A DNA stretch of 62,907 nt, the filler included, from Sphacelaria rigidula (taxonomy: Eukaryota), in assembly GCA_964200075.2 (NCBI GenBank). It is 10 parts of 10 records of this genome, joined end to end, with 100 filler letters (N's around TTAATTAATTAA, not from the genome) between each part and the next. Parts side by side here need not be neighbours in the genome. Positions count along the whole stretch, not along the records: positions 50,408 to 56,607 come from CAXNAA020021556.1; positions 56,708 to 62,907 come from CAXNAA020021557.1; 8 more parts are not named here. One strand, written 5' to 3'. A model generated the notes under the pieces. It worked only from the letters and a program-made list of their open reading frames with translations. It was not told the DNA's origin and did not search any database. Of the stretch, positions 3,949 through 62,907 are shown piece after piece. Position numbers and translations under genes: made by a program. Numbering within the stretch: position 1 is the first letter of the stretch; each line of letters opens with the position of its first letter.

Positions 3949-4330
3949 GCCCCGGTGGTGTAATGGTCCGATTGTCGCCATTAGGGTGGAGCGAACGGGG
4001 GGGCGTACTCATTTGTTGCTTGCCTTAGTCATTTGACCATTGACCACGCATCCCTTTCGAGACGGAGCACAGTGGAGCGAACGGGGGTTCGATTCCCGAT
4101 GCGTTGGGCATTTTCTTCGTTATGTGTGATTTCCACGGTAAAAAGCTTGAGAACGTGAGTAAACAAAATAGTCGACTGCGTTTGTGTACGGTGAGTTGAC
4201 GTGGTGCGGAAGTGCTGGCCCAATCCGCGAGATCAAAAGGCACGTATCGGGGGAGAGAAGTATTGATCCCTTGAGACCACGGACTCATCCCGAGGAAGAG
4301 AAGGGGTTCGAAGTGTGAGGAGAAGAAAAA
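3949..4330 (+). mobile_element. tRNA-derived SINE-like element interrupted by a LINE 3' fragment
   Basis: A box-like TGGTGTAATGG and B box GGTTCGATTCC; 4245-4320 recurs at ~49808-49880; 3' limit approximate. Confidence 0.55.
4002..4071 (-). mobile_element. Minimal 3'-end copy of the C-tailed LINE, 16-bp TSD
   Basis: TSD gtggagcgaacggggg at 3986-4001 and 4072-4087. Confidence 0.85.
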
Positions 4331-5402
4331 AAGTATACCGTTCCCGAGTTTTTCCGGAGTGTTTCTTGGGTCCCAATTCTATACTGAAACGTAGTAATTT
4401 ACATTAACACAGGGTGGACCGGAAAAAACCGGGAAGGAGTGCACATGCCACGATGTGGTCATTTTCACGAGGCACAAAATCCAGATGGGGTGTGGAAAGA
4501 CAAAAGGAGCTACCGTAATGATTTCTGCTCATCCCTCTGCCAATGACTTGCAGTGTGCAGTCCACATGTATGTAGTGGACCGGGATGACAAAGCTGTATG
4601 TATATAGGCAGCTGATTTCGGTAGCTGAGAATTGCCCAGAACGCGCAAGGGAGTATGCAGCGGTAGCTGCTGCTTCAGTCGGAGACGCGCACCGCACTGT
4701 ACTGTACTGTAGTATACTGTTGTATACATGCGCGCCGCAACGCTGATACCCTTCGCAGAGAATTTGCCCCATTCAACAAGGGGGGAACTGGCGGCCAACC
4801 CCTCCCACAAAGGGTTGTATGGCAAGGTGATGGGGACAGAAGTATCATCCAAAGCCACAAGTGGCGGGCGGCCTGCCGGTCGCCGCATCCTGTTGGAGGC
4901 TCTCTACCACGACTCATACTGCTTGCTACATGAGATGTACACCAGCTAATGCGCACCCTGCACCTGAAAATAGATTGGATGAAAGTTTCGGTCTTCGTCA
5001 TGACCCTGCGGTCGAATACGCGAATTTTCAGCAACACGCGACTGTTTCGTGCGGACGCCAGACACGTCATTCCTGACCAGCCTCATTGGTCGTTCTGGAG
5101 GCCCGGTCCCAAAAGGGTTAATCGGGCTTTGCCGACTATCTGGAAAACAATCGGCGGCGAGCGGTGAATCCGCGAGGCGGCCTTCCCGGCTCGTTAGGGG
5201 ACCCCGCGGGAGCGCCGCCGGAAGCGAGAAAAATTGCGTTATTTGGCTTGTTTTTCCTTGAAAAAATGTGGAAATTTGAAAAAATGGGAGCCCTCACATT
5301 GAGTAGCTCAAAGTCTTGGAGCTCAAAGTCTTGGATGACACAGGAGTGCCCAGAGAACAACCTCCGAGCCCCTATGTACCCCACCCCCCCCCTCCGACGG
5401 TC

Positions 5403-5463
5403 CGTCTCGAAAGGCATGCGCGGTCAACGGTCGAACGACTGAGGCAAGCAACAAATGAGTACG
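5403..5463 (+). mobile_element. Minimal 3'-end copy of the C-tailed LINE, 17-bp TSD
   Basis: TSD ccccccctccgacggtc at 5386-5402 and 5464-5480. Confidence 0.85.
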
Positions 5464-5549
5464 CCCCCCCTCCGACGGTCGTAGTTTGTTTTTTTTTACG
5501 TTGAGAAACACTCAACCAATAGCCATTTTGGGGCGACGTGGGTGAGGTA

Positions 5550-13898: not shown

Positions 13899-13934
13899 GA
13901 AGGCTCAGAAGCCTTTGATTACGTCCGCTCGGAA

Positions 13935-18280: not shown

Positions 18281-19211
18281 GAGCACTACAGGCCCACAAG
18301 GGGACTTGGATCAAATCGCCAAGAAATGTCGACAGCCAGCACACACGCACATTTGTATACATATCAGAGTAACTAATTCGAACACTTTCGCGCATTACCC
18401 CCCGACGTTGGGGAGTAGTGTTCGTGTGTGTGATGCACATCGTGACTCTTCCCGCTTCACCACTCCGAGATAGCCTCCCTCTGAAAGAATTTTCCGGTGA
18501 CCCCTCCTTCCTTCAGAGACTTCATCTGGGTGAGCATGTACGGTGTGCGCGCTCCTTGCTCTGGTGACAGAGTCCCCTTGTGCGAAGTCATGTCCGTCGC
18601 AGTATACCCTGGCGGTAATTAGGCAAGTCAAGGGCAACACACGCTCATTCGGATGACGGGCATGCATGATAAATACACGCCCCCGTGAGAAGGGTGGAGA
18701 ATGCGACGGAGGTTGGGGGGGGAGGGGGGGGGGGGGGGGTCATCTGATCATGGCCGGGAGGAGGGGAGGGAAGGGCAGGAGAGCAGTTCGCGGGGGAGGC
18801 GGGNNNNNNNNNNNNNNNNNNNNNNNNNNNNNNNNNNNNNNNNNNNNTTAATTAATTAANNNNNNNNNNNNNNNNNNNNNNNNNNNNNNNNNNNNNNNNN
18901 NNNGTGGGCTATGGCGCGGTGCTGCGTGTTCTTGATGTCGGCGGAGGTGGAAGGGAGGTGCGGGGGGTGGGTTCTGCGGTCCTCATTTGTTGCTTGCCTT
19001 GGTCGCTTGACCATTGACCACGCATCCTTTTCGAGACGGAGCACCGGTTCTACTCCCAAAAGAGACCTCCGAACATTTCGGTGCTCATCACGCTCCTTCC
19101 GTCTTTTCTCCACCGTCTACTGCATCAAACGATTTCATACCACCTTCGTTCTCGTCCCGCATTTCACCATCGAGTACGTCCCGTTCCTCCTTGTATATTC
19201 ATTGCTTCGCA

Positions 19212-20560
19212 TTGATTGATTGGTTGATTGATTGTCGCACGTCAACTGACCCCACAGGGATCCACCCGTGGTCACATGATAGACGTACGAGCTGGGCCGG
19301 GAGTAAACCCAGCATTCTCTGTCGTCACCACAGCTCTTCAAGTTTCCCAAATCAACACGACCTGAGCATATCGCTGTGAACTTTAGACTAACCTGGTAAC
19401 ATAAGGCACCGCCACTGCTCGATTGGTGCACTTTTGGCGATGATGTTATTGTACTGCATTGAGTATCGAGTACGTCCCAATTCTTTGTGCGACAGCGTGC
19501 CTGGAGACGTTTCGTTTCACAAAATGCGGTGGAATTACGATAGACCGTTGCGCCGCATAGGCACACGCACACCTGACATGCCCAGGCAAGAGCATATTGG
19601 TCGTGCTGCAAGATGGCATCGAGCTCGTCATAAGCTCCATAATGGGAGAGACCTTCCGAGCCAACTGTCGTATATCACCGCACGAGGGAAAAGTACTACT
19701 TGAAGCTGCGCTATGCCCTCCCCAAAAGCAAGACCATCGCCATATTGTCAAGACCTTTTGCAACCCAGAGGTACGAGAGAGTATGCACGATTTGTGTGCA
19801 CGCAAAAACGTTTTTGTCGTGTCGGGATTCGAACTCGTGACCTGTGTCATTTGAGGCTGTTGTATCAGTTTGACCACCGGGCCCAGACAAAAAAGTGCCA
19901 CCCGAAGCCCAATTTTACGTACTTTTGGCTGAAAATTTACAAGGATGTGGTTGACGCGAGTGCCCGTACGTGTCGCCGCGTTGTCATCGTTTGTATCAAT
20001 TTTTGAGTAAATTATAGCATTTTTCCTGTTTTTGCTGAAACTTCGACTCGCTCTAGCTTCCGTTTTTTCTCCTTCTTTCCTCTTCACCCTTTACAGGGTG
20101 GCGCAGATTGATGATCAAAATGTCGTGTCAAAATGTCAGCGCCTAACTCTTCGAATTGCCAAAAGCATCTCTACTCTTCGTTTGCACATCACTGATGGCC
20201 GGCCCAACTCGTACCCAAGACAAGACAAAACAAAACTGAAACACTTACTGAAGAAAAAAGACGGAACAGAAAGAATCGAACAGAACGACATAGTAGACTA
20301 AGAGGTTGATAAAAATTAGACAATAAAATGTCAACAAAAGTAGAGCACAGAAATAAATGGCCGATCTAAAACAAAACAAAGGAAAAGAAAAGAAAAGGAA
20401 AGAAAACAGCAAGAAATAGAGAGAGAGAGAAAAGCCCAGGGGATTTAGGGCAGCAAAGTAGATACAGACACACACGAGAGGGCACCGCTGAGCCACCGAC
20501 TTAGAACATAATCGAAGACCGATATGACCAGACCGGATTCTTCGCTTGGCGGCCGTCGAC
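19212..20560 (-). mobile_element. Family B (CAAT-tailed) retroposon inserted in the LINE and split by a MITE
   Basis: Tail gattgattggttgattg at ~19212; halves rejoin as gatagacgTAcccaagac. Confidence 0.7.
19288..20211. mobile_element. Tc1/mariner-type MITE (CGAGCTGGGCC TIR, TA TSD)
   Basis: TA|cgagctgggccgg ... ccggcccaactcg|TA; empty site visible in other family B copies (e.g. ~54840-54855). Confidence 0.85.
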
Positions 20561-21640
20561 ATTCTGTCACAATATGAGTTCTACTCTCTATTGCTTTGCC
20601 ACAGGGGCAATTCTGTGCATCTACTTCCTCCTCTGGACTACTAGTGTATCTCTTCCTTCTTTGTGGCAGGTCCCGGTCCCCCACCCGACATCGCAGCTTC
20701 AACTTTTCGCCGCATCCATTGGGCCATGCAGGTATACTTTCATCCCTATCCCCTCTCTCAACCCCCCGTGTATCTTCAGAAGTTTTTCATCGTCTGCTTT
20801 GCGTTCGAGCGATTATTTTCCCATTATTTCTACCATGTCTCTCACTCTTGTTTCGTACCCCGCACCTTCCCTTCACCTATGGACAGTATATCGTCTTTGT
20901 TTTCTCCTATCCCCTTCCATATTTTCTCGACTACGCCATCCCACCTTGTTCTAGCCTGCCCTTTCATTATTTTCTTCCATGCAGCCCTATCAACTATGGT
21001 TGGCAATATCTTTATCTGCATGTTCTTTACGATATATTACCATCTCAATTTTCTCATGCCTCTGTTTCAAGTGGGTACATTTCCAATTCTGCTCTCAATG
21101 CTGTATTAGCCGTCGTTGTCCAGCATCCAAGTGTTTTCTTAGCTGCTACCATCTCTGTACTGTTTCCAACTTCTTCACCAACTTCGCGTTCCCCTCCTAT
21201 ACTTCTCCTTCATATTCTAGCTTTGGTACAATCAAGTTCATCAGGATACAACTCTTTATCCTAGTGTCTAGGTCCGAGTGCCTGAAGATCACGTCCATCC
21301 TGCCTCTCTGTGACTCACCCTTTTCTAGTACTTCATGCGCACATCTCAACACTTTTCTTGAGATTTCTACTGTACGCCACGGTATGCGTACTAGCCTATG
21401 ATCTGCAGCTCCTCTTTTCCCCACTTCTCCACCGGGTTCTTCTCATCTTAGTCAAATACAAGTACCGCGCATTTGTTTACGTTCACTGTTACTCTCCACT
21501 TCCTAGTATATTCTACCGCCTTCTCTATTTGCTTCTGCAACCCTTCTGGTTTTTACACCAACCCCACGAAATCATCCGCGAACATCAATCCTGATACCAT
21601 ATCTTCCTCCACCTTGACTACTTGCTTCGCTGCTTCTACT

Positions 21641-22070
21641 AACACGGGATTTTACGAATTGACGATGGATTTTTTATTGGGGATGAAAACCCGGGGAATT
21701 AAAGTCTTCGTATACACACCAAATCTTCGAAGTATGCTTCCATTTCTTCACTTGCTGGTGGATATTGACGAACACTGTACGCCATACAAATTTAAATTTC
21801 GATAGCCGATTTGTCGGGGTCCTTGGTGAAAAAACAATGCAGGTGTCCGATCGGATCACCTAAATCCCCCATATTGGTTTTTCACCTAGGACCCCGACAT
21901 TTCGATTATCGAAAGTCAAACTTGTATGGCGTGTAGTAGTTGTGAAGAGCTACCAGCAAGTGAAGAAATGGAACCATGTTTTGAAGATTTGGTGTGGATA
22001 CGAATATTTGAATTCTCCGGGTTCTCATCCCCAATGAATAATCCATCCCCAATTTGTAAAATCCCGTGTT
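21641..22070. mobile_element. Foldback MITE (~430 bp, nearly fully palindromic) inserted in the LINE RT
   Basis: aacacgggattttac ... gtaaaatcccgtgtt; arms ~200 bp; flanks tact/tatt. Confidence 0.85.
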
Positions 22071-23049
22071 TATTGCTATTATCAGGTTATTATGAAATAC
22101 CTTGAATAGAGTAGGTGATAACGTACATCCTTCTGCAACTCCTTGTAAACTATATACTTTTTCGATATTTCCCCGTCTAGCATTATAGCACTTCTGGCAT
22201 ATTCGTCACCTTCACAATTTTCCACATCTTTCCTCTGATCCCAGTTTCCCACAAATTTTTCCAAGCCCATTTCTCCACACTGTGGAATAGGTCTTTTGTA
22301 CGTCCAGAAAGAAACAGTACGTTACTAGCCCGGTACTAGCCCGGCGTCTTTCCTACCTTGAATAGTGTTACCTAATGTGTACACATGGTCTACGCAACTA
22401 CGGTTTGGCCCAAAACCTGCTTGCCTCTCGCTGATTTCCCCTTCCTTCTCTAGCATCGTTCCCACTCTCATCATTCAGAATCTTGCAGAAAGGTTTTCCC
22501 TACGGTGCTCATTAGTGCTATCCCTCTATGATTCCCTGAGTCACCCTTGTCTACTTTCTTGAGAACGTTGAATACCACGTCGCTCCACCTCTTGGGTGTG
22601 TACTCGTTTTACGATACCGGTTATACAGCACATCCATCATGGTAATCATTCCCTCTCCTCCGCACTTTAGGAATTCATTCACCATGCTGTCTGCCCCTGC
22701 TGCTTTTCTGTTCTTGAGTTCAGCTGCTCACTCCTTTACTTCATCTGCGGTAAACTCCCTGCAATTCTTCGGAGCCACTATCCTCCCTTTTTGATGCCTC
22801 TACATTGGCCTCTGCCAGGTGTTGATATCTGTTTGGAAATCCGTGTTAAACTTCCCGTCAGTTTCCGGTGTCCCTAGTTTACGACAGCGCTCTACGAGTA
22901 GTTCTCTCTCCCCCTTCGAACTACTAAACCTTTCTACCGTTCTGTGCCCGTAGGGTGGTTATCCCCGTCTCCATGTTTCCTGCCTTGTTTCCCACTATTT
23001 TATTTCTAGCTATATTTGTTTCATCCCGGGAGGGAGGGGGAGAGGGGGG

Positions 23050-23125
23050 TGGGTGGGGGGGCGTACAATACTCATGATCTTGCATGCCGTAGTCATACAT
23101 GAGAATATTGACCTGGTATCCCTAC
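23050..23125 (-). mobile_element. 3' end of a sister C-tailed retroelement family
   Basis: Consensus gggatgcgaggtcaatgatct..tgactatggcatgcatgatcatgagtacaccccc; copies at 25205-25263, 33530-33570, 35706-35766, 43946-44007, 56708-56740. Confidence 0.7.
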
Positions 23126-23137
23126 AAAGCTGGGACT

Positions 23138-24398: not shown

Positions 24399-25304
24399 GA
24401 TCATTGTCCACAAAGATGTTGCTGCAGCGCGCAGCGCACTTAGGAGCACCGCGGTCAAAGCGACCAAGCGTCGTATCGGGTGCTCAAGATGAGGAATGTA
24501 CCAACAACCGTAAACAGACAAGAAACTTCCAAACACTGGATAATGACGACAGATTACATTGCCAAGATGCCAAAATGCGTACTGCGTACAAACTGCGTAC
24601 AGTATCGACTATTGCGTCAGTTGCAATAGACAATGGATTCTAAACTGTACGCAGTACACCTTTTGACAATGTTATCTGTTCTCCAGAGTGTGGAAACTTT
24701 GAAAATATAAAAAATGTACCTGTCGGATGCGCGATGGCCGTAGCTTCGAAAGTGGAACTCTCCCGCCGCGGAGACCTGCCTCTTAAGCCGAAAACCAGGC
24801 TTGGTAGTCGTTACATCGTCCTCGCCTAGCGCAGGCGCCTTAGTCCCCTGAAGATTGAAGCACGCAAAGAGGCGACGGACGAGTTCGGGATGGGCTATCA
24901 AGATTCGCTTCTCATCATGTCGCATCCGTAACCACCCACGGTGTAGCGCTCCTCGTCTGAGTATGAAGGGAAGCGCATGGCTGCCCGGTAGAGCTTTGCG
25001 CCGGTTATTGCAGCTGGACCAACAGCTGCAAGGGACCTTGAAATAACTTCAAAATAAAGGTTTTCACCCGAAGTTGGCGGGGGTTGGGGGGGGGGGGGGG
25101 GGGGNNNNNNNNNNNNNNNNNNNNNNNNNNNNNNNNNNNNNNNNNNNNTTAATTAATTAANNNNNNNNNNNNNNNNNNNNNNNNNNNNNNNNNNNNNNNN
25201 NNNNGGGGATGCGAGGTCAATGATCTCATGACTATGGCATGCATGATCATGAGTACACCCCCCATCAAGCTGTGCCGCAGGGGCCGGGCACTTCCAGTTT
25301 TACT

Positions 25305-33378: not shown

Positions 33379-34601
33379 GTGATGAAACAACGGACGAAAC
33401 ACTTGTTAGTGAGAAAGCAGTTTTTGTCTCATGCTGTAAATGGGGGACGGGGGGAAACTCTGCTTCGTTTAACTACTCTCGTTATTAACCCTTACCTTGC
33501 AAAGTGGGGAGGAGGGTGGGGTGGGGGGGAGGGGTACTTATTATTTACATGCCATAGTCATAAGACCATCGGGGGGAGTGGAGCCGCTGGGCGCGGGCGA
33601 TGAACGCATGCAAACCGGTGAAAAAAAACGTCATTGGCCCGCCCTGTATGTATTTTTTTTCAAAGCACAGCAGTCCCCCCCCCCCTCCCCGCCGCCTCCT
33701 TTTTATTTTTGTGCCGCGAGTGATGTATCATGTCAGGATACTGCAGGAATCCTGCCGTACATAGAAGTGTGTGCCTACAGTAGAACGTTCCTTCCCCTTT
33801 ACATGCCGCGAGGAACGTTCGCCGTTTATTGGCTCGTTTGTTGCACCGTGCAGTATGCATTGCACACAAGAACGGAACAAAATAAATTAATAGAAAACAT
33901 ATAAAAACAAGAACGTGAAAATGGAACCGTTGGCGAAAACTGAAGATTTTGACCACACACATACATGTACGTCCGCACAAGACACACAGCTTCACCGCAA
34001 TTTTTGTTCTCAGCGGCAAAACCGAAACCGCTACGGGTACAACACCACCGCTGTAAAAATATGAGTACACGTCGTTTCACCCGAAACAACCAGCGAGTTT
34101 TTTTTTCTCTTTTGGTTGTCACCCTTGACGCCCCCTTCCCTTTCTGGAGACGAGTCTGCGGTCCCAAGGGATCAAGTCATGTCTCCCCCGCTACGGTACA
34201 TGCCTTACGTGTTGGATCGCGTCGCAGATTTACAGTCAGTAACACCCCCGCATCGCGTCCACTGTCGTCTAACAAACTCAGTGAAAACAACACCATCTCT
34301 CCTGTTCATTTCCTCACGCTTTTAACGACAGAAATGAGATATTTCGCAAACGACCACAACAACAATAACAATAACAAACTAAGCGCATCGTGCGGGAAAA
34401 GAACCCCCCTCCCCCCCCCGCCCCGCCCCTGATATACCGGTGTAGTCATTTCAATCGTACCTTTACACAGCCGGGGGGACGGCAGCAGTGAGTTTACAAC
34501 AACATTTTGTGACGGAAACAGCTCCACAGAGCGCACACCTGCAAAATCATGAAACAGACCCCGCTTGCGTGTTCCGACCCATGCACCCAAAACGGGTATA
34601 G

Positions 34602-34889: not shown

Positions 34890-35257
34890 GATGACGATAG
34901 CAATAGAGGGTAGAACTAATATAATAATGGCAGAATGTGAACCATACAAGGAGGAACGGAACGTGTTAAGAGGGGGGGAATATGGAAAGTAAACGGAGTT
35001 GGCATGAAATCGTTTGATACATTGGACAGTAGCGAGGGAACGATTGGTATAGATCGGTATACTTTTTATTTGGGAGATGGATGGTGGCCACAGACGACGA
35101 AACAGGAAGGGAATGATATGTGGATATATATTTTTTTCTTCTTGTAGTTTTATGGAAGAAACGTTGTTGGCGTCACAAATGTTGGAAGTGTCGCTAATTG
35201 GAGTAGGGACGGTGCTCTGTCTCGAAAGGGATGCGTGGTCACTGGTCAATCGACTAA

Positions 35258-35292
<35 letters not shown>
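34890..35292 (+). mobile_element. 5'-truncated C-tailed LINE fragment, intronic
   Basis: Matches ~58985-59315; preceded by a C tract and followed by a long poly(C). Confidence 0.75.
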
Positions 35293-35936
35293 TACCAAAA
35301 AACAGAGGGGGGGCGAAGGCGGGGCAACGAACAAAAGNNNNNNNNNNGACGGCGGTTCTGTTCCTAAAGGGTGGCGTGGTCACTTGTCAAACTGATAAAT
35401 GCCCCCCCCCCCCCCCCCGCGCCCTCGTTTACAGGAAAAAGACTAGGGGTAGGAACGAGCGTTGTGAAACGAACTAGGGTTTGAACCACTGTCTCGTGAG
35501 GGAGAGAGGTTTGGTGAAGTCACCCCGGCGGTATTTGTGTGCGAGGAAGTGACGCGTGTCTGTAGAAAATGTCAATGCGCTGTGCACTTGAATGTTTCGC
35601 GGGTCCCCGCTTTCGTGTTTATATGATAATATAAATAAAATGGGTGGTAGCTTCTTTCTTGAGATGTTGTAATGAATTCCCCCTCACCCTCCCCGTGTTT
35701 CGGTAGGGATGCGAGGCCAATGGTCTTGTGACTACGGCATACAATATGAAGAGTACCCCCCCCCCCGGCCCCACCCACACCCCCCCCACCACCGCGCACC
35801 ACCGCCGACCCCCCCCACCGGGGGGCGGCACNNNNNNNNNNGAGCGGGGGAGAGGCCCTTGTTCCTGCGCCTAACAAAAACAATATGCCCCCCCCCCCCC
35901 CCCCCCCCCTCCTCTCCCCCTCACCCGGTATTTCAG

Positions 35937-37442: not shown

Positions 37443-38010
37443 GCTATAATATACCTATCGCTTGCGACCGCCGCGATATAGGAGGGGAGCACGCTTGAAC
37501 TCGTAGTCCATAATGTCATGCAATCGAATATGTGGAAAATCAAGAAAAAAAAAAAGCGTACGATTTATGCTCTTTTGCAGCAAAAATATCCAAACGCTGT
37601 ATCAAACGTTTACTTTTTTTTTTGCTTAGCGGCGATACCCTTACCCAAGCCCCCCCCCCCCCCCCGCGCCCCCTCCCCACCCCCCCGCCCCCCCCTGCCT
37701 CTCGTCNNNNNNNNNNNNNNNNNNNNNNNNNNNNNNNNNNNNNNNNNNNNTTAATTAATTAANNNNNNNNNNNNNNNNNNNNNNNNNNNNNNNNNNNNNN
37801 NNNNNNGGATTGTTTACCGCCTGCCTGCTCTTAGGCTTCATCCACGAGAACGCAGTACCACACTCATAAAAAAATGATCGTCTGTGTACAGAACCGTTTC
37901 ACAAATCTGTGATACTGTACCGTCTGTGCCATAAAATGGTCACCCCGATTTTGAGTACACGAATTTGAGTCCCCCCGATTTTTTAGTCGGGATTCGTTTG
38001 CCATAAAAGT

Positions 38011-41233: not shown

Positions 41234-41384
41234 ACATCCCTGTCCTCGTCTTGGGCGGCCCAGCCCGTACTAAGTTCCTCATGCATACAAGATGTAATCA
41301 ACCCTGCGACATCGCGTTACGCCTCATACCCAAATCACTTGCTCAAATAGGGATCGCTCTGTTTCGTTCACCCCCCGTCGTGCT

Positions 41385-41455
41385 GCTGCTGCCCCGTCTC
41401 GAAAGGGATGCGTGGTCAATAGTCAAACGACCAAGGCAAGCAACAAATGAGTACG
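41385..41455 (+). mobile_element. Minimal 3'-end copy of the C-tailed LINE, 12-bp TSD
   Basis: TSD ccccgtcgtgct at 41373-41384 and 41456-41467. Confidence 0.85.
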
Positions 41456-43337
41456 CCCCGTCGTGCTTGGTTTCACGAACAATGTGGAGGAAAACCAGTG
41501 TACGTCAGCAATCCGACACTACATTACACAACGAACCCAGGATCACCTTGCACGCGCGTGTTTTACACTCTCCTCGAAACGCTTGCTACACGGCAAATTT
41601 ATAGATGTAAAACGATGGATGCCTCATCGGGTGGGCGGTATGCGCTCATAACGTCTCCCTAGGACGGGGGATAATTTGGCGCCTTCAAAATGGCCAGGAA
41701 AAAGCCGCCAAAGCTCTAGGCTTGCAACACGGGTTTGGGGGGACTCGTGTCGCGCAAGCTGGCCGCCACATGCTTTCCGGTCGCCATGGACTTTAGCCAC
41801 TGCGGTATGCAACATTGTGATTTGATCGCAATTGGGCATATACGGAACGAACCCCGGCTTTGACTAGCTCCGTAGCAGAGACGGACTGTGCAGTGATGCA
41901 CGGCCTCCGAGTATTGAGTTTTGTCGTCCCTTCTTTCCGATACAAATCGGATAAAACTGTCGGACAGGCGTTACAGAAACAAGCGTAGGAGCAGCGTTCA
42001 CCCTGACCGACCGCGGAGTACCGAACTTTCTCCACTGTCCACGAGCTGGGCCGACCTAGACACGAATTCGCGGTTTTCAGACTTCGCCTCACCTCAATTC
42101 TGAGAGATGGACCTCCACGTTTGGTACAAACTAAGAACAGGGCGTACTGAAAAAAATTCATGGCGGGACGCCTGCGTTTTTTCTTCTTTTGTCGTGAGTG
42201 GGTGGGTAAAACTAGCATGCTCGATCAAGTTCCAGCATGCCTTCTTCCTCCGCACCAAATTCCAAGAGTTCACTTCTCGAAGTTGAGGTGAAACGGGGCG
42301 ATATCAAACCGGACCGGGCGAAATTCGGAAGAATATTTTTCAGGCCATTTACCAGCCGATATTTGATGCTTATCTTTTTATAAATGTGTGGGACCTTGCT
42401 CGGCCGCCATGAACCCAAAAAGCGGATTTTTTCTCCACTTGTTGAGGACATTCAACTGTAGTATTCGACACATCTTGATACAACGCCCACCTCTCTAAAA
42501 ATGAGCTGATTTCTTTCTTCTTCGTTTCACACTGGTAACTCTCCACACAAAATTCGTACGTCGGACAGCTCATAAGCCACCTGAATAATACTTCTTGCTA
42601 CAGGACTAATCCGGATCACGAGGTAGTTCATTTCGCCACAATTTCCGTCTCAGGTCCCGACAGCGATGGACGCCGCGAACGCCGTGTAGCAGAAGGCAAT
42701 TCTTTGGCTTCACGGACACTGCTGTCATGTGCTCCATGTTTTTGTACAACAGATCTCAGAGTTCTCTTCGATTACTTATTTCAGGGATCATAGCTCATGA
42801 GCTGTCCCCCATGCGCAAAAATTCGAAGCACAACTTTCGAAAACTGAGACGCGATGTCCAGATTTAGTGCGTTTGGTGCCCCTACCCGTTGTCTATTCGT
42901 CTTGGTTTGGAAATTCACGTGCGCCACATGTCGGTTTAGATGAGGGTTCGCAGATGAGAACAAAAATGCAACGGAAATTGCGACCAGAACACAGAAAAGA
43001 GTGCTAGGCGGTATCGTTCATTTTTTACGTGTGCTCTCATGTTCGAGTGGTTATTGCCACACTTGTCGAATCCACGTGAACCTGCAGGGGTGCAATATTG
43101 AGCGCCCAGTAGATGAATATCATGGATCGCTTCCGCAACTACATATCGTATTATCGTGACTTCGGCACCTCTAGGCCTCTCGCTTCACCTAGAAATTCCC
43201 TGGAATGACGCATGAGTGGTTTGGGAAATCTTCCCAGACGATTGGGGAACCCGCGCATGACCGATATACTGCTGAAGATCTAATGATTCACCTCGGCGAT
43301 TCAGTGATCAAAGTGCCGTAGTAAACGTGGTCCTCAC

Positions 43338-43451: not shown

Positions 43452-44621
43452 CTGGATCGGTTGGAATTGGAGTGGGTTGTTGTTGATCTTGTTATCTGCA
43501 CATGAAGAACTTCTGTGATATGTGCGCGATACTCCGTACTGGGCATCTGATGCGGACGCCTTCTTCAGTCACAGTCCAAGTACCAGAAGTGAGGTGTAGT
43601 AAAACCCGTAAAACTAAAATTGGACTTGCGAAAATCCACACCATGTACACTGTATGGTCAATAGTTGCAGTAGACAAGAGACGTACTGCGTGAAGTATAG
43701 GTCTATTGCGACTGTTGTCCGCAGTAGTTGCAATACGCCTTTACGTTATGCAATACACTCCTCGTCCATGGCATCCGTTGACCATATATCGTCCAGGGTG
43801 TGGGAATTCACGCAGCCGTGATGAAGTATGAAAAAAATACTGCGAACCTCACAAGCGGGTACGTTCATAACTTACGGCCAGCCGACACAAGCAGCTGCAC
43901 GGTTGCCAACGGTGGAGCTCTCACTCTACTCGGTTCCAAGCCAGCAGGGGGGGGGTGTATTCATGATCATGCATGCCATAGTCACAAGATCATTGATCTC
44001 GCATCCCNNNNNNNNNNNNNNNNNNNNNNNNNNNNNNNNNNNNNNNNNNNNTTAATTAATTAANNNNNNNNNNNNNNNNNNNNNNNNNNNNNNNNNNNNN
44101 NNNNNNNAATGAGTTGCTATATTTTCTGGTATCGCAACTTCCAGAGACAGCCACGGCTTCAACACTGCCTCATGGGTGTCTCACCATTTCAACACTACGG
44201 GGAGGGGGGGAAGGGCAAGAAACAAACGCTGGGATTGAAAGCATGCCACGTAACTTCATGCTATATACTGTTCTGTGTATACCACCCAAATCACTCCACT
44301 GCTTCCCTCTCTGTTCATGAGACTACTTCCCAAACGTGACGTCTCCGCGTTCATTCAGATTAGCCGCCCTCACCTCAATAATCTTGCTCTACATCGTCAT
44401 CCCCCTGATGATCTACGTTAATACAAACATACTCCACATGAACGCCTTCCTTCGGCCCTTCCTCCAGACGTTTTTCCCATGCGTTCATAATTCCATAGTA
44501 ATCCCACAAGTCGACTCCCACGCCCCCACCCCACCAAGACGCGGACAGCTATTTTCCCGTCTCCCCTTCACAACAAAAGACATGGGCACACCCTAACTGT
44601 ACAATCGCAGTCGCGCTGTTG

Positions 44622-46527: not shown

Positions 46528-46779
46528 GACTAATGCCGAGATAGCCCCCCCACAAAACGTGCACGGTGGACCGTCCGACAAACCGGCTGCGATCCCACTG
46601 TTGGGCTCATTTGCAGCAATGCTGCCCACATGAAAGGCTTGTAGCAGTCCGAAATCAGCTATAACGCCCAAGTAAGTCGCGTCGTGGAACACGAAACAAG
46701 CTATAACGGCATTAATGATCATCGCCTCCGTGCACATTTTTGGCCGGTTTTTTTGGGGGGGGCTATCTCGGCAGCAGTC
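46528..46779. mobile_element. MITE with GAC...GTC termini, 4-bp TSD (CGTC)
   Basis: Homologue of 13650-13898; TSD at 46524-46527 and 46780-46783. Confidence 0.85.
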
Positions 46780-46996: not shown

Positions 46997-47218
46997 CGCT
47001 ATCGCTATACTTGGGGAGACAGATGCTGGCCACAGAGGGCGAAACCGAAGGAGAATGAAATACGTGAAATATTTCCGTGAGATGTATGGAAGAAACGTCA
47101 TGAGCGCCAGAATGTTGAAGATGTCTCTATTAGGACTAGGAACGGTGCTCCGTCTCGAAAGCGATGCGTGGTCAATGGTCAAACGACCAAGGCAAGAAAC
47201 ACACGAGTACGCCCTCCC
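46997..47218 (+). mobile_element. 5'-truncated C-tailed LINE fragment
   Basis: Matches ~59125-59340; directly preceded by a 40-nt C/T tract. Confidence 0.8.
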
Positions 47219-54797: not shown

Positions 54798-55946
54798 CGC
54801 ACTTCAACGATCCCCCATAAATCCAGCCGTGGTTACATGATAGAGGTACCCAAGACAAAACAAGACTGAAACAATCGCTGAAGAAGAAAAATGAAGAGAA
54901 AAAGTCGAACAGAACGACATAGTAGACCAAGACGTAAAAACACAAAATGAATCAAAAGTCAAGAAAAGAAAAGCACAGGAAGAAATGGCCGGTCTGAAAC
55001 AAAAAATAAAGAAAAAAAAACACACACACACACACACAAAACTGAATGATAAAAATGTACAGAATAAGCGAAGATCTCGTATGATATTTTTAAATAGAAA
55101 AAGGGGGCACATAACCCCAGCCACAGCACGCGGCCACCCGGGCCCTACCCAAGCGACGATCATTCCCCATCCAAAACCACCGTCAATGCCACCGGCGGCC
55201 GAAGTCGTTGCTGTGTTCCCATCACAGTATGGCTACACTTCAATCCCATCAACACATGATTTTCAACGAATTCTGAATGTCCTGTTCGACGCCTCTCTCA
55301 GTTCAATGAAAATATGCAACTGCTGCCGAGTGACTTGCCACGGTGTTCGATCCCAGCCCTTTCTTTGCGCATGCACAGCCTATGTACTCAATCACGGACC
55401 AACTATTTCGTATCGCATCACCATTGCTGCTGGAAAACACTGGCTGGCTCACCTCCCGCCGAAACTGGACCACGACCCAAAATATCCCTCGCAACTTCTC
55501 ACAGACGACGGCGCAATGGTATTTCGGGCGGACCCGAGGCCAAAATGCATTAACACAGATGTCTCCCTTCTGTCCCGATGTTCTGCATGTGCCATCGAAT
55601 ATCGGGACGGCGGGACGAGAGGTTAGAAGAAGTTCAATCCGGGAACATTGTTTTGACATGACAATTTTTGTTATTGCATACTGTGAATGCCCTCGCACTC
55701 ACGAGTTGCTTCTTGCCAAAGCGAGGCTCCGCCGTTCTTGCTCTCACCACGAGCCTTGGATTTGGTAGGGAGAATGAGATTATTACTGTATGTTACCGTT
55801 TCAAGGGATATTTCCTCCATTGCCATCTGTGGCAGTAATTCTCACGAACCGAGAGCGAGATTGGTTCAGAACTGTGGAAGTGTTTCAAGGGCAGATCGAG
55901 TAGAGTATGTACTTTTGAGTACTCGAGTAAAATTCTCGAGTATTTA

Positions 55947-56340
55947 CTCTACTCAAAGTTCGAGCAGATCGAGTACGGCTTCAAATACTCTACTCTAATT
56001 TCGAGTTGATCGAGTACGACCTCCAATACTCTATTCAAATGTTGAGTGAGCATTCTCAATAATACTTGCGTATAGAGTACCACTTGGGTATGACCTCAAT
56101 ACTCTACTCAAAGTTCGAGTAGATTGAGCACGGCCTCAAATACTCTACTCAAAGTTTGAGTAGATCAAGTACGACCTCCATACTCTACTTGAATATTGAG
56201 TAAGCACTCTCGATAAAACTCGAGTATAGAAAATCACTTGAGTATGACCTCAATACTCTACTCAAAGTTTGAGTAGGTCGAGTACGGCCTCGCATACTCT
56301 ACTCAAATTTCGAGTAGATTGAGCACGGCCTCACATACAA
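55947..56340. repeat. Higher-order tandem repeat (~41/41/73-bp units)
   Basis: Units begin actctactcaaa; pattern short-short-long twice, then short-short. Confidence 0.85.
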
Positions 56341-56754
56341 TACTATATTCGTGAGATTCAGAACGTAGTTTCAGATTCAGAGTGGATGCTCTAGTGTTCC
56401 TAACAGGCAACTTTTTTTTTTTTTTTGCTTAAGCACACTCCTGTGCATGTACCGTACAGTACCCCATTCGAGGAATTCGGCGGTCTGGTTGGTGAGATAC
56501 CGCACAAATCATTTTTACGGCTGGGGGGCATTTCGGAACTGAAACTGTTTCAGGCACTGATCGGTTTTTCCTGAAAGAGGGGATATTTTGTTGCAATGGA
56601 CTGACTANNNNNNNNNNNNNNNNNNNNNNNNNNNNNNNNNNNNNNNNNNNNTTAATTAATTAANNNNNNNNNNNNNNNNNNNNNNNNNNNNNNNNNNNNN
56701 NNNNNNNAAGCATGAAAATGAGTACACCCCCCCCCCCCCGCCCCCTGTGCACAG

Positions 56755-59340
56755 CGAAAAGAGTCATCGGCAAGAAACTGATCGTATGCAACCGAACAGT
56801 AAACTGGTGGATGAGGAAGTAAAAGAGGCTATCCGAGTAAGGAGAGAGGCCCACGCGATATGGGTGTCGAGCAAAAGTACGGTAGGATGAGAGGAGTATA
56901 CTAAAGCTCGAAATAAATTGAAGAAGATGGCACAGAAGAAAAAGAAGGAAGTACGGAAAGAAGCAGTGATGAAAACAAATGAAGATTTCGATGGCGGGAT
57001 GGAACAAATGTGGGTAGGGATGAAAGGGATTGTGGGAAACCAGGCAGGAAAGAGGGACAGGGGGATAGCTACACTATGGAACGGTAAAATGGTCGGTAGT
57101 TCGAAGCGGAAGAGAGAAGTGCTAGTCGAGCACTACCGTAAACTAGAAACGCCAGAAGCTAACACCAAGTTCGACAAGGAATTCGAGATAGAGATCAAGG
57201 AGTGGGCAGAAGCAAATGTAGAGACTTCAAAACGAGATGAGAGTGGCTCGGAAGAATTGCAGAGATAATTTACTAGAGATGAAGTAAAGGAGTGCGTAGC
57301 TGAACTCAAGAACAGAAAGGCAGCAGGGGCAGACGAAATAGTGAATGAATTTCTGAAGTACGGGGGGAAGGAATGATTTCCATGATAGTTATTCTGTACA
57401 GCTGGCTACGGGAAAACGAGTACACAATCAAGAAGTGGAGAGAAGGAGTGGTGGTCAATCTTTTTTAAAAAGGAGATAAGGCTGGCACAGGGAACTATAA
57501 AGGGATAACGCTCCTCAGCACGGTAGGGAAAAAGTTCTGTAAGATTCTGAATAATAGAATAGGAACGATGCTAGATAGGACGAAAAACTCAGCGAGGGAC
57601 AAGCAGGTTCCCGACTAAACCGTAGTTGCGTAGACCATGTGTACACACTAGGTGAGATTATTCAGGGTAGGAAAGACGCCGGGCTGTCAACGTACTGGTT
57701 TTTTCTGGACGTGCAAGAGGCTTATGACACAGTATGGAGAAATGGGTTGTGGAAAAAAATGTGGAAAACTGGGGTCAGAGGAAAGATGTGGAGAATGGTG
57801 AAGATGACGGAATGTGCCAAAATTGCCATGATGCTAGACGGGGAAATATCGCAATATTTCGATATCTTACAAGGAGTTGCACAAGGATGTACGCTATCAT
57901 CCACCTTTTTCAACGTATTCATTAATGACCTGATATAACCGAGAGAAGTAGCAAATCAAGGAGTCAAGGTGGGTGAAGATGTGACATCAGGTTTGATGTT
58001 TGCAGATGATTTTGTGGGGATTTCAGGAACAGCAGAAGGACTGCAAAAACAAATAGACAAGGCTCTAAAATAGGAAATGGAGAGTGACAGAAAACGTCAA
58101 CAAATGCGCGGTACTCGTCTGCAACGAAGATAAGAAAAATCCGGCAGAGTTCAAATGGAAGTGGGGAGATGAGGAACTGCCGATCGTAGACCAGTGTACA
58201 TTCTTTGGTGTCGAAATCTCGAAACACTGTTCTTGGGATGCATCCATAAACAAAGTAATAGAAAAGGTGAGGCACAGATAAGCAGAATGGACGTGATCCT
58301 CAGAGACCCGCACCTAGACACTAGAATCAAGATATGCATCCTGATGAGAGTGATCGTACCACAGCTGGGATGTGCAGGAGAAGTATGGGAGGGGAACGTG
58401 AAGTTGGTGAAGAAGTTGGAAATAGTACAGATGGCGGCAGCTAAGAAGATACTGGGATGCTTGAAAACGACGAGTAATACAGTTTTGAGAGCAGAGTTGG
58501 GAACGTACTCACTTGAAACAAACAGAGACATGAGGAAATTGCGATGGCAATGTAGCGTAAAGAACATGCAGAGAAAGAGATTTGCCAGCCATGGGTGATA
58601 TGGCTGTGTGAAAGAAAAGTACGAAAGGGCATGCTGGAACCAGGTGGGACAAAGAAATCGAGAAAGTGTGGAAGGAGAAAGGAGGAAATCAAGACGAAAT
58701 GCTGGCCATAGGTGAAGGCGCGGAGCACAAGACAAAAGTAAGAGACATAATGGAAAAAAGGGGAAAGGAGCGCTCAGACGCGAAGTAGACGACGAGGAAC
58801 ACCTGGAGATACACGGGGGGTTGAGAGAGGGGGTAGGGATGAAAGCATATTTGCATAGCCCAATGGACGCTGCGAAACCAGTGAAACTGCGATTTCGGGT
58901 GAGAGACGTGGACCTGCCAGAAAGAAGAAGGAGATATACCAGTAGTCGTGTGGAGGAAGTAGATGCACAGAACTGCCTCAGTGGCTAAGCAATAGAGGGC
59001 AAAAGTCATATAGTTGCAGAATGTGAACTATACAATAAGAAACGGCATGTGCTAGAGGGGGAAATGCGGGACGTGAACGAAGATGGCATGAAATCGTTTG
59101 ATGCATGAGACAGTAGGGAGAAGACGACGTCTATACTAGGAGACAGATGGTGGCCAGAGACGGCGAAACAGGACGGGGATAAGACATGAAAAAGGTTTTT
59201 GTGTAATGTATGGAAGAGACGTAATGAGCGCCGGAATGTTGGAGGCGTCTCTATTGGGCGTAGGAACGGTGCTCCGTCTCGAAAGGGATGCGTGGTCACT
59301 GATCACACGACTAAGGCAAGCAGCAAATGAGTACCCCCCC
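56755..59340 (+). mobile_element. 5'-truncated decayed LINE (RT with FADD, C-terminal CCHC remnant; RTE/RTEX-like) ending in a C tail
   Basis: KAAGADEI, QAG.R, FLDVQEAYDTVWRNGLW, GVAQGCTLS, GLMFADDF; many stops and frameshifts; ends aaatgagtacccccccc. Confidence 0.92.
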
Positions 59341-59608
59341 CTCCTTGTGCTATACAGACTTCGGTTGGGCTATTTTCGTAGTTGGGTACATTTCTGAGTG
59401 TTGTCGTGTGATTCTTCCCCAGAAGTCGAAAGTCCTAGCGTGAATAGGCATTGGAAAAAGAAGCAGGTGATGCTCGGAACACAATCCTCAAGCTGGTGTT
59501 GTCGAGGTGATACGGAGTAAGGACCTCGTTTATCAGGTGGTTTTATTCACCGCCACTGGTCCAATAAACACAGATCTTTCAATCCTTAGCGCAATAATGA
59601 GGTAAAAA

Positions 59609-59641
<33 letters not shown>

Positions 59642-59868
59642 AGGGGTCCGATGACTTTTGCCGCCACGCTCAATGAGATCAACAGCCAAGATGCATGAGA
59701 ACCGGTCATCGTTGCTCGCGTTGCGTAACGGCACAGGTCACAGTTTGAAGTAGAGTATTTTCGCCGTGTGCGTATTGTGGCACTTATCCCAGGAGCAGGG
59801 TATGAAGAAAAGGTTGATTGATGTTTGATAGTTCCACCCACGGGAACGGGTAAAGGAAACAACCTTCA

Positions 59869-60100
59869 GCGTCGATGCACGCACACGGAGACACTCAGTA
59901 ACGCTTCCACCTGCAGTAACGGATAATACCCTCCAGCGTCGATGGAACACACCCGGAGACACCCTTTCACCTTTCCCACCTACAGCAACGGTTAACAACA
60001 CTGTCGACCGTCGAAGAACACACACGGAGACACTCATCCACGTTTTCCACCCATACGAAACACCGTCCACCGTCGACGAACACCCCCCGGGGGACACTCG
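59869..60100. repeat. Degenerate ~65-70-bp tandem repeat, 4 copies
   Basis: cgtcga...cac.cggagacac recurring. Confidence 0.6.
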
Positions 60101-60457
60101 TAGCATGAGCCCAGTGTTCGTTTCGTCAGGAACATCTGTCATAACAGTACTGTCGACTGCCATAGATGCACACCATCGTCTCCAACCATGAGCACAATCT
60201 TGATGCGCCGCCTAAACACCCAACAGCGCACGGAAGACTTGTGACGGACACACACCAGTGTTCTCAGCCATGATTTCAATATTATTGCACTGCGAAAATA
60301 CCCGTAACCACAGTGATTACCGACATACGCACAAGCTGCGGCAACAGCATACAGGCGACTCACTGTACGATGTATATGAGAAACGGAACATGTAATGTAC
60401 ACAATTCTGAAAGACCCGCTGAAAAGATTATACAATCCTGAAAGACGAACACTAGGG

Positions 60458-60533
60458 GGGGGGGGGCGTACTCATTTGTTGCTTGCCTTAGTCGTTTGAC
60501 CATTGACCACGCATCCCTTTCGAGACGGAGCAT
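60458..60533 (-). mobile_element. Minimal 3'-end copy of the C-tailed LINE, 15-bp TSD
   Basis: TSD agacgaacactaggg at 60443-60457 and 60534-60548. Confidence 0.85.
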
Positions 60534-60639
60534 AGACGAACACTAGGGACCGATCACCCGGTAGTGTACCTCACGTCATTACCCACCGTACGAAACAGGA
60601 TCCAGAAACAGAAACAAAAAAGGCGTACAGTATGCATCG

Positions 60640-61150
60640 TGACAACGAAGTACCACACAGTACCCGCAACGTGACGATAACTGTGGCATACACGGTCGAA
60701 GCACGAACTCGGAACTGTTTTCACCGTCACTTCTCATCAGGATCGACGGAGTCACAACTGTAGGCTGTGAGGAGGTCACCGAGGACAGCATCAAGGACAT
60801 GGGCGTTAATGGTGTCGATGGTAGCGTTCGTCGATGATAGGATGACGCTATAGTCGGCTGGGCGTTTCTTTGACCTCAGTCCAGGCATTGTCATCGCACT
60901 GACTAAGATGTCGTCGATCCTCATCCTTGGTGTCGGGAGTGTTCGCAACTGAAGGGATGCATCCGACGCAATCGTTGTTGATGCTACCGTGCATCTTGAG
61001 CGCATGTAAGGCAGCCAAGGACGCTGCAATAGCACGATTTGAATTTCAATGTCACAACGCCATCTATCTGCCCTCCTGTGTGTTCTTCCGAAAGTCAGCC
61101 GTACCCGGACAGATTGAAGTGATTGTCTCGAAGCGTTTGGAATGTTCCGC
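60640..61150 (-). mobile_element. Helitron Pif1-like helicase remnant
   Basis: SVILSSTNATIDTINAHVLDAVLGDLLTAYSCDSV fits the Helitron helicase pattern AIL.PTN..VD.IN..IL..L.G....Y.S.DS. Confidence 0.6.
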
Positions 61151-61248
61151 AATCTCTCTCACACCACCCGCTTGCCTACCCCACGACCTGCCCGCCGGAC
61201 GCTTCCATCCACAGGTTCCCAGTCATCATCTTGTTCCCATTCTTGCAG

Positions 61249-61473
61249 GAGTTCACGGCTCCAGAGGGGGGTTACAAGTTCATCAACGGGCGTGGGGAGG
61301 TTCAAGATGCCGACGAGTACATTCGAAATTCGGAAGAAAAGTTAGCGCAACAGGCGGCTGAAAAGTTACAGGGAGAAACGCTGGTGAATCCGATGCCAGG
61401 TCCTGTCCCGTTTCCCCCCCTGTCGGCGCCGGCCGATCGAGAAGGCGATGCAGATGTACCAGAAGAAGACTGA
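61249..61473 (+). CDS. Terminal exon of an unidentified host protein
   Basis: Pyrimidine tract then gcag|EFTAPEGGYKFINGRGEVQDADEYIRNSEEKLAQQAAEKLQGE...VPEED*; protein-like composition. Confidence 0.65.
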   Translation, partial: EFTAPEGGYKFINGRGEVQDADEYIRNSEEKLAQQAAEKLQGETLVNPMPGPVPFPPLSAPADREGDADVPEED

Positions 61474-62907
61474 CCCTTGGGGGGTACTGTGTGGAGAGGA
61501 ACCCCTCATGGATTTCGTCGCGTTTGGGTTTCGAGCTTTACATTTGCTAGTGGGCTTTCTTTGGTTTGCGGCAAATGAAATTGCAACAAAAGAATTGCGG
61601 CCACCCTCTATTTTTCACCTTGTCTGGCGCGTGTCAACGCCTATATATTTGGCGTCCAATGTTGAATGCTCTGTTGGTCTCCGGGTTGATGTCTCAAGTG
61701 CTTCAAAGATTGTAGATACATGTATGAGTTGAGCTTGCCATCATTCCGAATAAAAATTTTGATCGATTGTATGAAGAAAGTATTTGATTCAGAACCCGGT
61801 TGAATACTCCGGAGGTAAAAATAGACGTGAAGCATGTCCTGGGAGAGAGATGGGCTCTTTCCATGAGAGTGTGGACTCGTTCCGAGAAAGGGGTGGGGTT
61901 GAAAGGATTTAAAACAAAAAAGTTCTCGCCTTTTGGGGTCGAACATCCGCATTAGAGAGGGTGGCGGCCTTCAGGCCTTTCCCAATGCGAAGACTGCATG
62001 AAAAAATGTGCAGGAATACAGGTACTCGCTCGCTTCTCATCGTCAAGCCTGGCTTATTTATATCGCTGTGGCGAACATTTTTGTCGTGTGATCGTCTATA
62101 CTTGAATTGCTGAAGTCTGTCCCGCAGTGGGGATGTGTGCATGATATGTGCCACTCGACACCCCACGCTCTACTCGTGAGTGCAGCCACACTTTCTTGCA
62201 CAACATGTCGGGCGAGAGGCGCTGTTGTGTAAGGGCGCACACACCAGGGGCACAAGCCATCCAAACAAGTGGAAATGGGTTCACGTATTTCTTTAGCAAG
62301 TGATCTACGCGCCGACGGTTACTTCAAAGAAGGCAGACAATACTGCGCACCCAATAGCTGCGCAGACAATAATGTACTGCGTAGAGTATGGGCCTTGTGA
62401 TGCTAGCCAGAAAAATAATTTTACTGGGTCGCTGCTGCTTGAGGGACTCCCTAGTCGAACTAGCCTCAGTTTCAGTTGTCAGCCTTTGCAACATCTTGTT
62501 ATTCGGAGTACCCTTGCAGGCAGAGCCTCATGGACCCGTCAGGGTATCATCCCCGTGTCCCCGGTCATTATCCAGGTCATCACTACCAACTCAACGTAAC
62601 GGCGTAGTTTCGTCACAGCACCCCCGAAGCGCGTTGGACAGAAATCGAGCAACAAGCTTGACACATACAAAACGATGAGCAAGTCACAACTCAATATCAA
62701 ACTAACGCGTAATGCGAGTAGCAACGGCACGAGTCACGCGCAATTTACGCAACTCCTTCGTGAGAAATTCCGGAGCGGCCTCAAAAATATCCTTGAAGGG
62801 CTCCAAGGGCAGGTCGAGTAAAGTTTTTCTTTGATGGGCAATAGACAAAAAAGGGTACACCCTGGTGCTTTTGGAGGAAAAAAGGGTGGCGCATTTTTCG
62901 CTTTGGG

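Follow-up and report, generated by a model that had tools for sequence, protein, structure and literature searches.

In L1, a mammalian long interspersed nuclear element (LINE), target-primed reverse transcription starts from a nick at TTTT/AA, and the poly(A) tail is made by the cell. Other LINEs end in short repeats, such as the (TGTAA)n of the eel element UnaL2 and the (TAA)n of the Drosophila I factor, and Kibi and Koshi are microsatellite-specific elements of the Tx1 clade. Here we describe a LINE family that ends in C's and is found inserted at C runs, in 62,907 bases of DNA from the brown alga Sphacelaria rigidula (assembly GCA_964200075.2). This whole stretch, called the window below, consists of ten ~6201-bp pieces with N44-TTAATTAATTAA-N44 spacers between them, and pieces adjacent here need not adjoin in the genome. 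The region at 56755-59341 is a dead, 5'-truncated copy of a brown-algal LINE with an APE-type endonuclease. As the best explanation of the observations, with a probability of roughly 0.6, we propose that it is an RTE-X-type copy and that its family integrates by target-primed reverse transcription in which G's of the nicked target serve as primer and a C tract in the element RNA as template.

The closest described relatives are in the curated transposable-element library of 'Characterization of the transposable element landscape shaping the Ectocarpus genome' (Genome Biol 2025, PMC12477816). According to the table in its Supplementary Material 3, RTEX-1a_Ec32 is 5867 bp long and has a single endonuclease-reverse transcriptase (EN-RT) open reading frame (ORF), a (C)n 3' end and a C-rich target-site duplication (TSD), and RTEX-2_Ec32 (5582 bp) is entered with (C)n termini/TSD and likewise a C-rich TSD. 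Two non-autonomous families are listed with C-rich TSDs as well: RTEX-N1 (607 bp), which 'can be present in tandem', and RTEX-N2 (188 bp), which has the LINE 3' end in common. Such short RTEX families share the 3' ~60-100 nt with the LINE and are recorded at high copy number, and the RTEX rows cite RTEX-4_NV and RTEX-1_BF as best blastp hits. RTE-1 and RTE-2 (4584 and 4037 bp, each with a single EN-RT ORF) end in (CAA)n and CRE-1 (4363 bp, a single RT-EN ORF) in (CA)n, the TSD column being empty for all three; the combination of an EN-RT ORF, '(C)n 3'' and a 'C-rich' TSD is entered in this library for RTE-X families only. RTE-X is given as the largest LINE group of Ectocarpus, its 16,418 copies making up 3.41% of the genome.

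The original prediction had allowed that a C-tailed, C-targeting LINE might be new. That does not hold, because the curated library already documents both features, as '(C)n 3'' and 'C-rich' TSDs, for RTEX-1 and RTEX-2 of Ectocarpus (PMC12477816). The terms 'C-rich', 'homopolymer', 'insertion preference' and 'target-primed' occur 0 times in the main text as far as its passages go, and in these passages the C tail and the C-rich TSD stand recorded but their mechanism is undiscussed. Passages of other papers that mention RTEX held no tail data, and a text search of the literature for poly(C)-tailed retrotransposons returned nothing relevant, which is weak evidence of absence since bracketed spellings ('poly(C)') are unsearchable. 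An element with a C tail and C-rich TSDs is already known, and the remaining value of the present locus lies in the mechanism. On the table's descriptions, the Sphacelaria element is like RTEX-1/2_Ec32 and RTEX-N1/N2_Ec32 in its brown-algal host, single EN-RT ORF, (C)n tail and C-rich TSDs, and like the latter two in having short partners that share the LINE 3' end, tandem units and a high copy number; the match to RTEX-1/2_Ec32 is one of table descriptions and not of consensus sequence.

The truncated copy and its full-length relatives

The body of the dead copy (copy H; 56755..59333, + strand) is a 5'-truncated and degenerate LINE that begins 9 nt after another copy, J (56708..56745, +), of which the last 18 nt (...AAAATGAGTACA) and a tail of C13-G-C5 are present. 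Piece 10 starts at position 56708, and it is this boundary, not biology, that cuts J on the left. By tblastn, 56755-59341 matches residues 495-1360 of P0004, a full-length relative with an EN-RT protein of 1360 aa, in several frames and with frameshifts and stops. Copy H retains an RVT_1 domain (E 5.8e-12; RT core at ~57579-58073), a C-terminal Cys/His motif at ~58970-59040 and the stop codon TGA at 59328-59330, followed by GTA. Its 3' end reads AAG GCA AGC AGC AAA TGA GTAC and then C8, that is, ...CAAATGAGTAC + C8; the C8 tail lies at 59334..59341 (+), and its first C also closes the GTAC motif. The flank CCTCCTTGTGCTATACAG is loosely like the upstream CCCCCTGTGCACAG, and from this resemblance the pair could possibly be a decayed TSD.

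The RT piece of copy H matches proteins of Ectocarpus sp. CCAP 1310/34 and other relatives at 49-81% identity. P0004 and P0006 (1360 and 1328 aa) each carry Exo_endo_phos and then RVT_1 in one ORF (in P0004, residues 170-392 with E 3.4e-12 and residues 740-989 with E 9.8e-31), and part of P0006 is almost identical to P0005, a protein that bears the name Ectocarpus sp. The features of an APE-type LINE were looked for in P0004 and in a further full-length relative, P0026: RVT_1 is present and Exo_endo_phos is N-terminal to it in both (E 1.2e-10 for Exo_endo_phos in P0026). Upstream of the endonuclease, P0004 residues 1-165 have no Pfam match, and the start of the protein (...VLVFGVPSDMTRIEFKRKCDEVGLYCFA...) is conserved between P0004 and P0006. 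A tblastn of P0004 residues 1-494 against the whole window gave no match, in agreement with the earlier statement that the endonuclease domain of this LINE lies outside it.

Both full-length ORFs end ...TKASNK*, with the stop TGA inside the conserved CAAATGAGTAC and 4-5 nt before the C run, so that the element has practically no 3' untranslated region (UTR). The copies share this 3' end and are truncated to varying degrees at the 5' side, with lengths from 70 to 2590 nt. The best explanation of the whole set is an active element of ~5.5-5.9 kb with one EN-RT frame whose stop lies just short of a (C)n tail.

Among PDB sequences, human L1 ORF2p matches the RT best (E 6.6e-21), and an R2 protein scores nearly the same (8.8e-20), so no membership of L1 follows from this match. 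The L1 clade was ruled out on other grounds: poly(A) is found at 0/20 ends, the TSDs start with C, there is no A/T target, and there is no separate ORF1, as judged from the single ORFs of P0004 and P0006, which start ~170 aa before the endonuclease. None of the protein homology matches from the RT searches bears a clade-informative name. The traits that the library gives for RTE-X are found here (one ORF with EN and then RT, C tails, and TSDs starting with C in 4/4 cases), the element agrees with none of the other LINE rows of the table, and on these sequence features the element best fits RTE-X, in the manner of RTEX-1 and RTEX-2 of Ectocarpus.

The element is like mammalian L1 in its APE-type endonuclease and RT, homopolymer tail and 5' truncation, in TSDs whose element-side start is the base of the tail, and in insertion into the tails of older copies. 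It differs in that the tail is of C and not of A, in its one ORF, and in a stop codon 4-5 nt from the tail with no 3' UTR. The description of this system as a G/C mirror image of L1 can be kept as a fair analogy, in that the C tail and the landing in C runs are real, but not as a statement of kinship, for the element itself is not L1-like.

C tails and target-site duplications

The 3' ends in the window were located by blastn with copy H and by an nhmmer profile of seven 3' ends. There are 15, of which 10 belong to the LINE family (A, B, C, E, F, G, H, I, J and N) and 5 to a second family (K, L, M, O and P) that ends ...ATCATGAGTAC(A). A C tail follows the 3' end in 15/15 of these and in 5/5 copies found outside the window, and poly(A) is present at 0/20. 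In 12 of the 15 at least 6 of the next 10 nt are C, which is true of 3.3% of window positions as background, and an A run follows at 0/15; the claim that the LINE ends in C's and never in poly(A) is thereby borne out. The first C run after these 3' ends measures from 0 to >24 (C32 in copy E, C17 in copy N), and GTAC is separated from it by a G, by an A or by no base at all. The C tail belongs to the element.

Four short 3'-terminal copies carry TSDs, all exact direct repeats. Copy A (3998..4073, - strand, ~70 nt) is flanked by 16 bp of CCCCCGTTCGCTCCAC (3986-4001 / 4072-4087), copy B (5401..5473, +) by 17 bp of CCCCCCCTCCGACGGTC (5386-5402 / 5464-5480), copy F (41390..41459, +) by 12 bp of CCCCGTCGTGCT (41373-41384 / 41456-41467), and copy I (60458..60532, -, 75 nt, ending ...GAGTACG) by 15 bp of CCCTAGTGTTCGTCT (60443-60457 / 60534-60548). 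Exact flanking repeats of at least 12 nt were found around 325 of 200000 random 75-nt intervals. Read in the upstream copy of the repeat, where confusion with the tail is impossible, the TSD starts with C3-C7 in 4/4 cases (CCC background 0.0196; p about 1.5e-7), and the earlier report of four short copies with clean 12-17-bp TSDs beginning in a C run is confirmed. The targets of B and F held longer C runs (C9 and C6) within which the TSD begins, and this would put the first nick among the G's of the other strand. All four copies begin within a few bases of each other, ~70-76 nt from the 3' end.

The number of C's at the 3' junction can be set against the C run of the target: 12 versus 3 in copy I, 7 versus 5 in A, 7 versus 9 in B and 4 versus 6 in F. 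The C12 run of copy I (60455-66) includes the CCC of the TSD, leaving 9 C's extra. Because the C's at the junction outnumber those of the target in I and A, they were brought in by the element.

Longer copies adjoin C-rich tracts too, as had been noticed, and this proved right at the 5' side of copies D (~23030), E (34899), G (47005, a long tract) and H (56755). The tract at the 5' end of D is the tail of copy O, and that at the 5' end of H is the tail of copy J. Copy A sits in a stretch (3986-4160) with a motif like a tRNA T arm (GGGGGTTCGATTCCC, + strand). A tRNA as the target of copy A was considered and rejected, ARAGORN finding none in the window or in the reconstructed empty site.

A 17-nt 3'-end pattern was run against metagenome and bacterial-genome contigs, yielding 130 loci (83 stretches among metagenome contigs). 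Judged by the profile, 125/130 matched by chance, which leaves five genuine long copies (L007, L026, L059, L114 and L115), all of which end ...GAGTAC(G) and continue with C8-C13 or with interrupted C tracts, as in the C9-T-C9 tail of L114. L114 and L115 lie within contigs filed as bacterial (a Sulfitobacter sp. metagenome-assembled genome and an uncultured bacterium), and P0033, an RT protein of 72% identity, is named Hyphomicrobiales bacterium. These bacterial-labelled copies are likely algal DNA binned into bacterial genomes.

Sequencing runs show how common the family is. Logan contigs of the runs X1, X3, X4 and X5 (four samples, two studies) were aligned to piece 10 (56708-62907) at 90% likeness; contig counts are not equal to copy counts, and the contig consensus is a plurality call. 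In X1, the summed word depth is ~68 in unique flank, 0.35-2.9 million in the LINE body and 7.1 million in the bin with the 75-nt copy I: the LINE family is very abundant, and its 3' end most so. Past the 3' end of copy I, where 911, 436, 836 and 147 contigs continue in the four runs, the plurality base is G on the + strand, that is, C on the element strand, for 14-16 positions beyond the 12 of the reference, with an agreement of 0.37-0.48. On the 5' side of the short unit, contigs (525 in X1, 392 in X3 and 452 in X4) continue into CCG and a long G run, equivalent to a C run just upstream on the element strand, and the X5 consensus there is mostly LINE body. Some contigs join the tail of J directly to the start of the 3'-terminal unit, or lead back 77-78 nt, and such joints indicate head-to-tail tandem arrays. 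The short 3'-terminal unit is the most abundant part in the runs, often with C runs on both sides; this unit of ~75 nt may reflect a preferred stop of reverse transcription, or may be a unit that spreads by itself.

The window holds further LINE copies. Copy C (18978..19201, -), an older one of 224 nt, ends ...GAGGACC followed by interrupted C-rich sequence, and copy D (20559..23030, -) is long and degenerate, corresponding to P0004 residues ~588-1265, with its 3' end missing. Copy E (34899..35292, +; 360 nt) has a shortened end, ...CGACTAAGTG, before its C32 run (35261-35292). Copy G (47005..47217, +; 213 nt) ends ...CACGAGTACG + CCCTCCC, and the short, diverged copy N (35354..35418, +) ends ...GATAAATG + C17.

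Apart from the C tail, the second family has only its last ~50-60 nt in common with the LINE. Copy K (35697..35766, +) is short, with a C-rich flank before it, and ends ...GAAGAGTA + C11; L (25206..25263, +) ends ...ATCATGAGTACA + C6 and M (43947..44007, -) ends ...ATCATGAATACA + C9, both being cut by a piece boundary, L on its left side. The cuts in J, L and M, all at piece ends, are products of the construction of the window. Copy O (23069..23123, -) reads ...ATCATGAGTA ttgtacg and then C7-A-C3-A-C6, and P (33512..33570, -), a weak match (nhmmer E 0.35), reads ...AATAATAAGTAC + C3-T-C7-A-C4-A-C3. The body upstream of O gave no tblastn match to the LINE proteins P0004 and P0026, and it recurs at 53095-53301 (-) and 44108-44184 (-); as a repeat, the family thus occupies 23069-23370 (-), 25206-25256 (+) and 43956-44007 (-) in addition to these two. 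We regard it as a probable non-autonomous partner, comparable to the RTEX-N families in the table of the Ectocarpus library.

Proposed priming from G runs and competing explanations

The tail, its excess of C's over the target, the TSDs that start with C and the insertion into older tails are direct observations, and a model in which an oligo(C) RNA end pairs with a G primer is, by analogy, plausible as their source. The endonuclease would nick the G-bearing strand in the G run or directly behind it, and the resulting 3'-OH, ending in G's, would pair with a 3'-terminal C tract of the LINE template. That tract would be copied from the tail of the donor DNA by a read-through transcript and not added in the way of poly(A), which we regard as the weakest step. 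Reverse transcription would then start inside the C tract, where slippage could lengthen the tail, and initiation anywhere in the tract together with slippage would produce a wide range of tail lengths. A second nick 12-17 bp away would yield the observed TSDs, starting with C's on the element strand. Every insertion would also provide a new C tract, and since each new tail is then a fresh target, copies would accumulate in each other's tails and in head-to-tail arrays, the nested and tandem arrangement that is seen.

This scheme shares more with simple-repeat-tailed LINEs than the homopolymer suggests at first sight. As in those elements, the tail would be a short repeat carried in the donor DNA, with microhomology between the tail and the nicked target; the difference is that the repeat unit is a single base, which gives the look of a poly(N) tail. 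RTE-1/2_Ec32 with (CAA)n and CRE-1_Ec32 with (CA)n, as tabulated for Ectocarpus, are likewise elements with short-repeat tails and with partners that share the LINE 3' end. Because the neighbours of RTE-X in the library table are families with (CAA)n and (CA)n tails, the element is described no less well by a simple-repeat tail whose period is 1 than by a poly(A) tail exchanged for poly(C).

Targeting could instead lie with the endonuclease alone: an enzyme that prefers G runs would nick the target, the RNA would end ...GAGUACG, and the C's at the junction would come from slippage or from untemplated G's with which the reverse transcriptase extends the primer ahead of engaging the template, with no role for pairing to an oligo(C) RNA end. 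The R2 reverse transcriptase is an example of untemplated addition before template engagement. Such a route would accommodate the wide spread of tail lengths (4 to 32), the C's above the target run in copies I and A, and the variable base (G, A or none) that follows GTAC before the C run, as expected of an imprecise start. We consider it unlikely, since the interruptions within tails (C9-T-C9 in L114, C13-G-C5 in J) look inherited or nested and not freshly polymerised, and since the simple-repeat tails of sister families in the Ectocarpus table, (CAA)n and (CA)n, are templated.

A true counterpart of L1, in which an oligo(C) or poly(C) tail is added after transcription and recognised by the LINE protein so that any C-tailed RNA could be mobilised, seems to us distinctly less probable still. 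To our knowledge there is no cellular route for a poly(C) tail, and that we know of no general cellular poly(C) polymerase weighs against this possibility. The long homopolymer (as many as 32 C's in the window, more in the contig consensus) would suit it, as would non-autonomous families that, by the library's description, have just the 3' ~60-100 nt and the tail in common with the LINE; that these partners keep the LINE's own 3' sequence fits recognition of sequence and not of a bare tail. Least probable by far is that there is no tail, the C runs being target sequence alone or a homopolymer artefact of sequencing or assembly. The genome is indeed rich in C/G homopolymers (93 runs of at least 6 in 62 kb), several of them beside assembly gaps, but copy I has 9 C's above the target within the bounds of an exact 15-bp TSD, C runs stand at the LINE 3' ends in 15/15 cases, the same tails recur in the four sequencing runs (four samples, two studies) and in 5 unrelated contigs, and the independent curated library tabulates them as well (PMC12477816).

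Recognition of the 3' end itself was also considered. For the final ~68 nt, the RNAalifold consensus shows a GAAA-loop hairpin with a closing stem GUGCUC/GAGUAC, in a stretch that is also coding; the single-sequence z is -0.36, and covariation is 0.114 as compared with 0.097 when shuffled. In the sharing of the LINE 3' end and C tail by the second family, the system is like 'stringent-type' LINEs, in which the RT recognises the element's own 3' stem-loop together with the repeat tail; the conserved stem-loop by which that type is defined is unsupported here. A tRNA-like 3' module extended by a CCA-adding enzyme was dropped, the fold being without support.

Several points weigh against priming by G's on a C-tract template in an RTE-X-type LINE. 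A conserved 3' RNA structure for recognition by the RT is supported neither by folding energy nor by covariation. Clean TSDs number four, and the 5' flank of copy C (19201) has neither a C run nor a clear TSD; at the 3' side, ends C, F and O have 5 C's in the next 10 nt. The contig consensus has a low agreement of 0.35-0.48, and among the contigs of the four runs there is none that cleanly skips copy I, as an empty allele would. The assignment to RTE-X draws on the table of the Ectocarpus paper and on elimination. The position of the nick, the pairing and the origin of the C tract in the RNA are steps that we infer, and the data fit a preference of the endonuclease for G runs as they fit selection by pairing, and fit untemplated G's added to the primer as they fit a templated tail.

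With these reservations, we hold to a dead RTE-X-type copy and G-primed, C-templated reverse transcription as the best explanation. A larger proposal builds on it, namely that integration requires the C tract of the template to pair with a G-ended nicked strand, and that the family's tails slip to at least 30 C's, each insertion improves the next target, and the family in this way seeds the unusually common long C/G homopolymers and builds head-to-tail arrays of the ~75-nt unit; this we put forward tentatively, at slightly less than even odds. Neither self-targeting nor a part in the origin of homopolymers is treated in the searched main-text passages of the Ectocarpus paper.

C/G homopolymers and other features of the window

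The spacers between the pieces lie at 6202-6301, 12503-12602, 18804-18903, 25105-25204, 31406-31505, 37707-37806, 44008-44107, 50308-50407 and 56608-56707. The longest of the C/G homopolymers counted above measures 32, and the longest A/T run 17. Among the unusually long C/G runs are those at 35261-35292 (C32), 35888-35909 (C22), 25086-25104 (G19) and 49110-49127 (G18), and the assembly gaps that several adjoin include 35338-35347 and 35832-35841. Recognisable LINE junctions hold 8/37 of the C/G runs of at least 8; the remaining ones may be orphan LINE tails or unrelated.

Elements of other kinds are present as well. An ORF of 413 aa at 13767-15008 (+) has a Cys/His knuckle-like motif and a poly-Q/G tail, and further long ORFs follow (15318-15917, +). 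Two relatives of the first were found, one with a zf-CCHC domain, and by their sequence the ORFs at 13767-15917 look like part of a long terminal repeat retrotransposon (gag and beyond). A 232-nt repeat occurs at 13650-13881 and 46528-46759 with 87% identity and contains a C8-C9 run; on the minus strand it reads ...GCCGAGATAG + C run + AAACCGGCCAAAAA, and the C run is internal, not terminal. Near the end of piece 9, a tandem repeat of ~154 nt has three units at 55945-56355 with 75-83% identity.

A LINE that follows a C/G logic in place of the A/T logic of L1 offers a natural test of how much of target choice is due to primer-template pairing and how much to the endonuclease. If the mechanism proposed here is true, this LINE would explain the long C/G homopolymers of a brown-algal genome, which reach 32 within 62 kb and exceed the A/T runs. 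Such long C/G tracts can hinder assembly and can form G-quadruplex or i-motif structures.

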